Shown here: piece after piece, positions 9,054-9,460 of the stretch
Layout of the letters: each line of letters starts with the position of its first letter
Numbering within the stretch: the first letter of the stretch is position 1
From: a virus
Lineage: Duplodnaviria > Heunggongvirae > Uroviricota > Caudoviricetes
DNA length: 16,792 nucleotides
Reading direction: 5' to 3' (one strand)
Virus record (IMG/VR): IMGVR_UViG_2859810971_000005
Notes under the pieces: generated by a model
Told to the model about the DNA's origin: nothing
The model's database searches: none
Seen by the model: the letters and a program-made list of their open reading frames with translations, nothing else
Program-made: the position numbers and the translations under genes

Positions 9054-9075
9054 AAAAAGCCGGATTGCTCCGGCT
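9054..9075 (-). terminator. rho-independent terminator
   Basis: Minus strand GCCGGA-GCAA-TCCGGC followed by TTTTT, directly downstream of the gene ending at 9095. Confidence 0.7.
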
Positions 9076-9094
9076 GTATGTGCTGTATGGGTGC

Positions 9095-9319
9095 TCAGTC
9101 TCTGATCCCTTTCAGAAATTCTATCAATGCATCTGTCTGTTCAGGATTTACTGCCAGCATTTCACCGGATAGCGCGCAACGAACAAAACCATGATGATCC
9201 TTTTCAATCAGCGCCCCCGTTTCCAGAAATGCGCGGTAATCAGTGATATTCATCGTCTCCATGTTGTCAGCATGGTATTTATCACGCTGTTTAAGTATCT
9301 CATCAAATTTCATCGGCAT
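9095..9319 (-). CDS. hypothetical acidic protein (74 aa), moron-like
   Basis: ATG at 9317-9319 with AGAGGA about 7 nt upstream (MPMKFDEILKQ...). Flanked on both sides by identical terminator sequences. The track's longer start at 9397 lacks a ribosome-binding site. Confidence 0.5.
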   Translation of the reverse strand: MPMKFDEILKQRDKYHADNMETMNITDYRAFLETGALIEKDHHGFVRCALSGEMLAVNPEQTDALIEFLKGIRD

Positions 9320-9414
9320 TGCGTTTTCCTCTGTTGTGTCTGTTTGTTTCAGATAGTAACTATGCCGGACCGTGACGAAAAGCCAGTAGTGCTCCATACC
9401 GTTTCAAATGACGC

Positions 9415-9438
9415 AAAAAAAGCCGGATTGCTCCGGCT
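9415..9438 (-). terminator. rho-independent terminator (second copy of the same 23-24 bp sequence)
   Basis: AAAAAGCCGGATTGCTCCGGCTG is repeated exactly at about 9055-9077 and 9417-9439; hairpin plus U-tract on the minus strand, downstream of the 53-aa gene. Confidence 0.7.
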
Positions 9439-9460
9439 GCGTGGTGTGGTTCTGATATTC

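Follow-up and report, generated by a model that had tools for sequence, protein, structure and literature searches.

A small optional gene between two copies of a predicted terminator in a capsid-forming PICI of Escherichia coli/Shigella

Introduction

Just ahead of the capsid operon of the element analyzed here, a single small gene, hereafter g74, lies between two exact copies of what looks like a transcription terminator. How did one gene come to be bracketed in this way, and is it a foreign passenger or a part of the element that carries it? A sequence-only reading of the same DNA had seen in it a moron-like cassette, i.e., a gene inserted or duplicated by recombination at the terminator, perhaps transcribed on its own and acting in anti-defense or host takeover. 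We followed up this proposal in the window, by which we mean the whole stretch of 16,792 nucleotides (IMG/VR record IMGVR_UViG_2859810971_000005), and in related islands from IMG/VR and from complete bacterial genomes. [quoted passage not shown]

Results and discussion

A decayed cf-PICI next to phoQ

Judging by the RefSeq annotation of near-identical islands and by tblastn synteny, the window is an E. coli/Shigella cf-PICI, a phage satellite, adjoining phoQ. It contains int, alpA and a replication gene, together with HK97-type capsid, protease, portal, connectors, HNH, TerS and TerL; the definition of the class also includes the lack of tail and lysis genes, a size of about 15 kb and a specific chromosomal site. 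The window is 99.8 to 99.9% identical to the island of Shigella flexneri SFBU1023. In near-identical islands, the RefSeq annotation gives the order integrase, HTH regulator, small genes, primase, hypotheticals, PerC-family regulator, 74-aa hypothetical protein, HK97-type major capsid, protease, portal, head closure, connector, HNH, TerS and TerL. In the window, which is transcribed from right to left, we found int, alpA, small genes, primase, origin iterons, hyp92, hyp101 and an ssb'-'perC fusion, followed by the upstream repeat copy (T1), g74, the downstream copy (T2), the capsid-operon leader, capsid, protease, portal and so on down to the terminase. EcCIEDL933, the prototype cf-PICI (10.1101/2022.09.08.507074), occupies the same phoQ-roxA site and carries the same g74 cassette.

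The last gene of the early operon is the ssb'-'perC fusion (53 aa; 9461..9622, minus strand), in which the PerC Pfam match covers residues 21-49 only and the SSB PHROG match residues 1-25. Alignment to island L002 identified it as the product of a deletion of ~502 bp. Decay of the island is also seen in the major capsid gene, with an in-frame stop at codon 276 (7967-7969), in TerL, which is split into two overlapping ORFs (3098-3269), and in an IS1 insertion (12773-13535) that is absent from the SFBU1023 island. Despite this decay, g74 is intact. Iterons (TATCTACCT and GGGTAGACAG, in both orientations) occupy positions 10256-10493, immediately 3' of the primase gene, and are probably the replication origin of the island.

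The repeat is a predicted terminator present in exactly two copies

The 23-nt sequence AAAAAGCCGGATTGCTCCGGCTG occurs exactly twice in the window, on the minus strand at 9417..9439 (T1) and 9054..9076 (T2). The repeat noticed earlier is therefore confirmed, with ends 1-2 nt away from those first given for it (9054-9077 and 9415-9439). A third copy was not found in the window even with up to 3 mismatches allowed, and the expectation from 200 dinucleotide shuffles was 0. Toward the left, a weak similarity continues past the repeat (ACAAAAAGCC versus AAAAAAAGCC), and the right edge ends at T versus C.

Both copies can fold on the minus strand into the hairpin AGCCGGA-GCAA-TCCGGCT, a 7-bp stem with 5 G-C pairs closed by a GNRA tetraloop (9421-9438 in T1 and 9058-9075 in T2). 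The tail that follows is TTTTTTTGCG in T1, i.e., U7, with the U-tract extending to ~9414, and TTTTTGTTATTTTTT in T2, i.e., U5GUUAU6, a U-rich tail that enters the start of the capsid-operon leader. The two were called by the terminator scan, and their folding energies were -15.7 kcal/mol (z -3.8) for T1 and -14.1 kcal/mol (z -3.5) for T2. T1 lies 22 nt past the stop codon of the perC remnant and T2 19 nt past that of g74, so that a G+C-rich stem, a short loop, a U-tract and a position just after a stop codon, the hallmarks of an intrinsic (Rho-independent) terminator, are found in both. A T-tract on the plus strand is absent at T1 and at T2. Minus-strand termination, as had been proposed, is thus what the scan and the folding energies predict. 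Among islands, the terminator varies mostly in its loop (GCAA versus GAAA, both GNRA). This pattern, together with the presence of an unrelated hairpin and T-tract at the same spot in other genera, lends indirect support to the prediction.

The same 23-nt hairpin and T-tract were also seen in three IMG/VR metagenome contigs with unrelated flanks (L138, L144 and L158; tttgtcctttca on one side and ttgta on the other). These copies reflect either convergence or a distant element with a common terminator.

g74 encodes a conserved small acidic protein

Between T1 and T2 there is no gene other than g74 (9095..9319, minus strand) with its 97-nt leader (9320..9416), in agreement with the sequence-only reading. 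The gene has its own Shine-Dalgarno sequence, AGAGGA (9327-9332), 7 nt ahead of the ATG, and its 74-aa product is acidic (pI 5.0, net charge -5) and belongs to PHROG 1957 (phrog_1957, E = 2e-40). An alternative ATG at 9397 would give a possible 100-aa product; the distant homologues all begin at the 74-aa start, and in an island that is 99.8% identical, RefSeq lists the 74-aa form, as a hypothetical protein. RefSeq also contains a 37-aa "trigger factor" CDS (WP_105322309.1) at ~9360-9473 of the window (minus strand; L001 9561-9674), overlapping T1 and the g74 leader. It is frameshifted in EDL933 and is almost certainly a spurious call.

The proximal ~60 nt of the leader are almost invariant across 16 distinct E. 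coli-type units. Scanning positions 8500-10300 for consensus sigma-70 promoters returned none. The conserved TTTTCG (9376-9381)-17 nt-TACTAT (9353-9358), with 7 of 12 consensus matches, lies under the threshold of the scan and may be a weak candidate promoter, which would make autonomous expression of g74 possible.

With dN/dS values of 0.09-0.31 among its alleles, g74 is best regarded as a real protein under purifying selection. Its G+C content (43% versus 51% for the island) is within the spread of the other small genes of the island. Structure prediction, one of the checks suggested beforehand, was successful as far as the model goes: AlphaFold2, with 24 family members as input, gave a pLDDT of 91.7, with three helices (5-14, 17-22, 25-34) ahead of three strands (38-40, 46-48, 54-56) and a last helix at 59-73. 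It did not lead to a fold match in the PDB or in BFVD. Searches with g74 against Pfam, NCBIfam and PADLOC gave no significant match (DUF1398, with E = 0.097, is under its cut-off), PADLOC offered no defense model at E <= 1, and Pfam found no consistent family across the 24 members. A PDB profile match to the nicking endonuclease N.BspD6I (37 residues, E = 0.004) was rejected as a generic beta-hairpin/helix resemblance to which the fold searches gave no support. Likeness to known PICI interference proteins or solved folds was found neither in sequence nor in structure. The results from Pfam, NCBIfam, PADLOC, the PDB and BFVD speak neither for nor against an anti-defense or host-takeover role. 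We also discarded the identity of g74 with RppA: EcCICFT073 is devoid of g74, and RppA (c1503) is a different gene. A literature search with the RefSeq accessions of g74 and its PHROG number gave no result, and the cf-PICI papers do not discuss it.

Islands with and without g74 differ at the terminator

The comparison of homologous islands with and without the cassette, also suggested by the sequence-only reading, was positive. Among 30 E. coli-type cf-PICI contigs from IMG/VR, g74 is present in 14 (filled) and absent from 16 (empty). The E. coli-type cassette with two terminator copies was found in 13 of the 14 filled islands, with the stem of one copy disrupted in L047 and in L059. In the remaining one, L057, perC and g74 are arranged in the divergent way: the terminator downstream is unrelated, and the T1/T2 repeat is missing. 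Each empty island has a single terminator copy, degenerate in the case of L052. The clearest pair is L006 and L002, which have identical PerC proteins (WP_000233314.1) and the same capsid leader, and differ only by g74 plus one terminator copy; the difference therefore amounts to a clean indel of g74 and one copy of the repeat. In L003 (RM6927, same site) and L006 (25-06685), the perC stop codon is followed by a single terminator and then by the same capsid leader, and EcCICFT073 likewise is without g74 and has one terminator. Searching 5,426 complete E. coli genomes by sequence matching, we found g74 in 539 of them and the full capsid leader in 358; leader, T2 and g74 adjoin one another in 214. 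These counts are not phylogenetically independent.

The breakpoints of homology fall exactly at the terminator. Partial BLAST matches covered either positions 1-286 of the query (leader and terminator only) or 260-525 (terminator and g74 only). The second class corresponds to another type of island, where a lambda-type module (capsid E, decoration D, Nu1-like) with its own promoter comes after the cassette; EcCICFT073 is the empty counterpart of this type. The lambda-type morphogenesis module (EcCICFT073 type) opens with the near-consensus promoter TTGCAT-16-TATAAT (L022 4840-4905, minus strand; L178 330-400, plus strand), and the TTGCA-containing palindromes around it are likely operators.

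An exact-pattern scan of IMG/VR for the terminator gave 81 contigs, from which 101 unique contexts were classified. The terminator follows perC in 64 of them, leading into g74 (29), the HK97-type leader (18), the L004-type module (13) or the lambda-type module (4). Where it follows g74, the next element is the HK97-type leader (17), the lambda-type module (12) or the L004-type module (1). All combinations of perC or g74 upstream with the three alternative downstream modules are therefore present. These contexts show that in E. coli PICIs the early module is bounded on its 3' side by one predicted intrinsic terminator, which is the joint for alternative downstream modules. The g74 unit (the 97-nt leader, the gene and its own terminator copy) is one such downstream module, and its presence is what duplicates the terminator. 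A further small optional module was seen at the same terminator, a segment of ~190 nt with a 44-aa ORF (MGPPGGVGLSTGRVGAEKGTFLLFYRHHHHVINRLFLMLLLSKR; L004 ~712-930), followed by a second terminator (AAAAAAGCCCGATAAG...CTTATCGGGCTTTTGC) and then by the lambda-type module. It is found in 13 further IMG/VR contexts, e.g., L106, L111 and L117.

The junctions left at empty sites fall into six haplotypes, at least five of which have crossovers at differing points within the repeat. In some, a T1-type 5' flank is joined to the loop (GCAA) and tail of T2, two have the T1 flank and T1 loop (GAAA) with the T2 tail, and in one the switch is located just 5' of the hairpin. Crossovers at several points in or beside the repeat indicate several independent events. 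The 23-30 bp of identity serve as a substrate for homologous recombination, by which the unit is removed or exchanged and a single, often hybrid, terminator is left behind. Deletion by recombination between T1 and T2 is the more economical explanation for the empty sites. Alternatively, the hybrid single terminators could derive from exchange between filled and empty islands, and the direction of the events is not strictly polarized.

A satellite-specific family with a conserved position

Near-identical g74 proteins were found only in E. coli and Shigella. More divergent homologues (32-47% identity) are present in Kosakonia, Serratia, Pectobacterium, Enterobacter, Phytobacter, Kluyvera, Leclercia, Erwinia and Proteus, and an exhaustive profile search among 1.8 billion representatives recovered 32 distant relatives of ~80 aa. 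Their common motif is DHHGF.R..LSGE.LA.N.EQ.D.LIE.L. Two long proteins among the profile matches (P0024 and P0045) were rejected as relatives, being repeat or TPR/STAND proteins. The scan of genomes was carried out with a narrower alignment of the family, the full one being too diverse. In species-representative genomes it gave 13 loci, all of them satellite-like and most of them cf-PICIs, with two short or fragmentary contigs of Erwinia psidii. Among the divergent cf-PICIs of IMG/VR, ~31 of 41 carry g74. A tblastn search against 50,697 phage records gave no match to the family.

The position of the gene is also conserved. As the 13 loci and tblastn synteny show, the homologue in at least 10 enterobacterial genera is found directly after the primase/RepA gene and iterons and before the HK97-type capsid module. 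In these genera there is no terminator 5' of the g74 homologue, and where perC is present, it is separated from g74 by a spacer of 67 nt; T1 has thus no counterpart in the perC-bearing relatives. The homologue is followed by one terminator (hairpin and T-tract) unrelated to T1/T2, past which the DNA runs on either into the conserved capsid leader or into cargo of 0.6-2 kb, most of it antisense. The arrangement with two identical terminators is specific to the E. coli lineage.

Cargo between the g74 terminator and the capsid leader was seen in L010 (8247-9853), L087 (5321-6988), L013, L074, L085 and others. It includes the PADLOC candidate systems PDC-M32A/B and PDC-M18A/B, a recurrent pair of genes of 168-170 and ~255 aa, and a 343-aa transposase-like ORF. 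This cargo site beside g74 is a defense hot spot, the variable region "before the packaging module" of He et al., where the Penades group anticipates immune systems (10.1101/2025.02.11.637232). Since the hot spot begins past the terminator of g74, the gene itself, which is optional, closes the early operon and borders on the hot spot.

g74 is probably a native satellite gene and not a foreign insert, because its family is confined to PICI-like satellites, absent from the phage records and syntenic in at least 10 genera. It is probably dispensable too, because EcCICFT073, a PICI that has been mobilized experimentally, is a working satellite without it.

These results bear directly on the idea that g74 is a moron, i.e., a gene of foreign origin that has a promoter and a terminator of its own, is transcribed independently, was inserted at the terminator and codes for an anti-defense or host-takeover factor. 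Much of its appearance fits: a terminator-bracketed unit that has a Shine-Dalgarno sequence of its own and a leader with hardly any variation, a G+C content somewhat below that of the island, a small and acidic product, and a location in the variable region where immune systems are expected (10.1101/2025.02.11.637232). Presence or absence among collinear relatives is indeed what we observed (L002 versus L006, and 14 filled against 16 empty islands). Foreign origin is not, given a family restricted to PICI-like satellites, with the origin directly before it and no terminator upstream across the genera, and a G+C content in the range of small island genes. In addition, the scan found no consensus promoter, the protein matches nothing in PADLOC, Pfam or NCBIfam, and the real cargo hot spot of the other genera is downstream of the g74 terminator. 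We consider this explanation unlikely. Of the original suggestion of insertion or duplication at the terminator, the recombination stands, backed by the hybrid junctions and the breakpoints, and the insertion of a foreign gene is not supported.

The conserved leader of the capsid operon

The leader of the capsid/packaging operon (8795..9053, minus strand) starts immediately after T2 and is conserved and structured. It contains the box TTTTGTAAATTATTTGT (9031-9047), three TTGTTC motifs spaced 10 nt apart (9029-9034, 9019-9024 and 9009-9014) and hairpins at 8933-8956, 8885-8932 (long and variable) and 8802-8831. A conserved leader of ~220-270 nt was found 5' of the capsid gene in all the HK97-type cf-PICIs sampled, from E. 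coli to Proteus (L007-L021 and L056-L102). The hairpin at 8933-8956 has 9 pairs, with 98.9% pairing and compensatory changes at 5 of them, and the one at 8802-8831 spans the Shine-Dalgarno sequence, with U7 between it and the ATG. The MFE of the fold has a z score of -4.66, and no Rfam family was detected anywhere in the window. Together, these features make the leader a candidate for a new cis-regulatory RNA, an attenuator or antiterminator, of the packaging operon.

The proximity of such a leader raises the alternative that T1, g74 and T2 form a regulatory device gating the early-to-late (capsid) switch, with g74 as a regulator or antiterminator of the packaging operon. The unit lies exactly between the early operon and the conserved control region of the capsid operon, g74 and its terminator directly abut the leader in many divergent islands, and the leader itself is highly structured, with a terminator-like hairpin over its Shine-Dalgarno sequence. 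However, g74 is missing from islands with identical leaders and capsid modules, two unrelated modules that have other promoters also occur joined to its downstream side, and in many genera the antisense cargo is interposed between it and the leader. The protein, moreover, is acidic and has no recognizable nucleic-acid-binding fold, and this role appears very improbable to us. Sheer coincidence, i.e., two similar terminators of independent origin or a non-genic ORF, has in its favor that short G+C hairpins with T-tracts are frequent and that the same 23-mer turned up in three unrelated contexts, but the exact 23-nt identity against an expectation of 0, the recurrence of the pair in the filled E. 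coli-type islands sampled (one disrupted stem each in L047 and L059), the junction haplotypes, and an ORF with a conserved family, a confident model and the dN/dS of a selected gene refute it almost completely.

A terminator joint and a probably native, optional gene

The explanation that we favor, and regard as likely, is that of a cf-PICI with a terminator joint and a native, optional g74 that is lost or exchanged by recombination at the terminator. In such an island, T1 would end most early transcription after perC, and g74 would be expressed by read-through of T1 or from the weak candidate promoter in its conserved leader. T2 would end the g74 transcripts and, with or without T1, insulate the capsid operon, whose control region would start at the U-tract of T2. 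The gene itself would be native to the satellites without being essential to them, and in other genera it would close the early operon.

What the protein does is a more tentative matter. It is possibly a protein-binding accessory factor aimed at particular helper phages or at the host, an idea that we hold with somewhat less than even confidence and that derives from its location, since interference genes usually sit after the PICI origin (PMC6739421). A role as late-operon regulator or replication accessory is less likely than this, and a capsid, replication or DNA-binding component is unlikely. According to the report on EcCIEDL933 (10.1101/2022.09.08.507074), that island does not interfere with its helper HK106, and as it carries g74, the interference idea is weakened for this phage. 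A bolder and rather doubtful extension is that g74 founds a satellite-specific family of small proteins with an unseen fold, manipulating a helper or host protein (in helper choice, anti-defense or takeover), and that the shared terminator is a selected recombination joint, a cassette system by which post-origin modules (g74, the 44-aa ORF module and whole morphogenesis modules) are swapped.

In any case, g74 represents an uncharacterized and widespread cf-PICI family, present at a fixed position in about half of the E. coli islands and three quarters of the divergent ones. Natural isogenic variants with and without the gene exist and include both laboratory prototypes, EcCIEDL933 with g74 and EcCICFT073 without it. 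If it acts on helper phages or on defenses, it would be a new player in the conflict between satellites and helpers; if there is no phenotype, it would be an ordinary accessory gene. The use of a 23-bp terminator hairpin as the crossover for module exchange and gene loss is an unusually clean example at the population level, and bears on the mosaicism of both satellites and phages.

Comparison with known systems

The morons of HK97/HK022-type lambdoid phages are reportedly single accessory genes with a promoter and a terminator, located between core genes (Juhala et al. 2000, Hendrix et al. 2000). g74, too, is a single small gene that has a ribosome-binding site of its own and a factor-independent terminator, is present or absent in otherwise collinear genomes and is slightly lower in G+C. 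It differs in being native to satellites, in a position conserved across genera and without a convincing promoter, and its upstream boundary is a second copy of the terminator instead of a promoter.

Immune systems encoded by PICIs are said to have been described by Fillol-Salom et al. in 2022. The hot spots that flank the packaging genes of cf-PICIs (He et al. 2025, 10.1101/2025.02.11.637232) are, like g74, immediately before the capsid/packaging operon, and in other genera this spot holds the PDC-M32 and PDC-M18 PADLOC candidates. g74, in contrast, is on the early-operon side and on the strand of the core genes, and it belongs to a conserved family with no match to a defense model.

Small satellite proteins acting on helper phages include Ppi, PtiA/B/M and CpmB of SaPIs and RppA (EcCICFT073 c1503). 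g74, too, is a small PICI protein encoded after the origin, the usual site of interference genes (PMC6739421). It is similar to no solved structure in sequence or fold, and EcCICFT073 is without g74, so that g74 was outside the gene set tested there. As regards anti-defense proteins (anti-CRISPRs, and DNA mimics such as Ocr/ArdA with their strongly acidic surface), g74 has a net charge of -5 and a pI of 5.0, and Pfam gave no match.

The joint itself has its closest parallel in mosaic lambdoid phages, in which short conserved boundary or linker sequences are said to act as crossover points (HK620, reportedly in Clark et al. 2001). In both, a short intergenic sequence common to non-homologous modules is the recombination joint, and all module combinations are found. 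The g74 joint differs in having the form of a functional-looking terminator hairpin, no longer than ~23-30 bp, and in making the enclosed gene deletable once it is duplicated. The case of g74 is thus one of known kinds, an accessory unit at the variable junction of a PICI combined with a short conserved mosaic joint.
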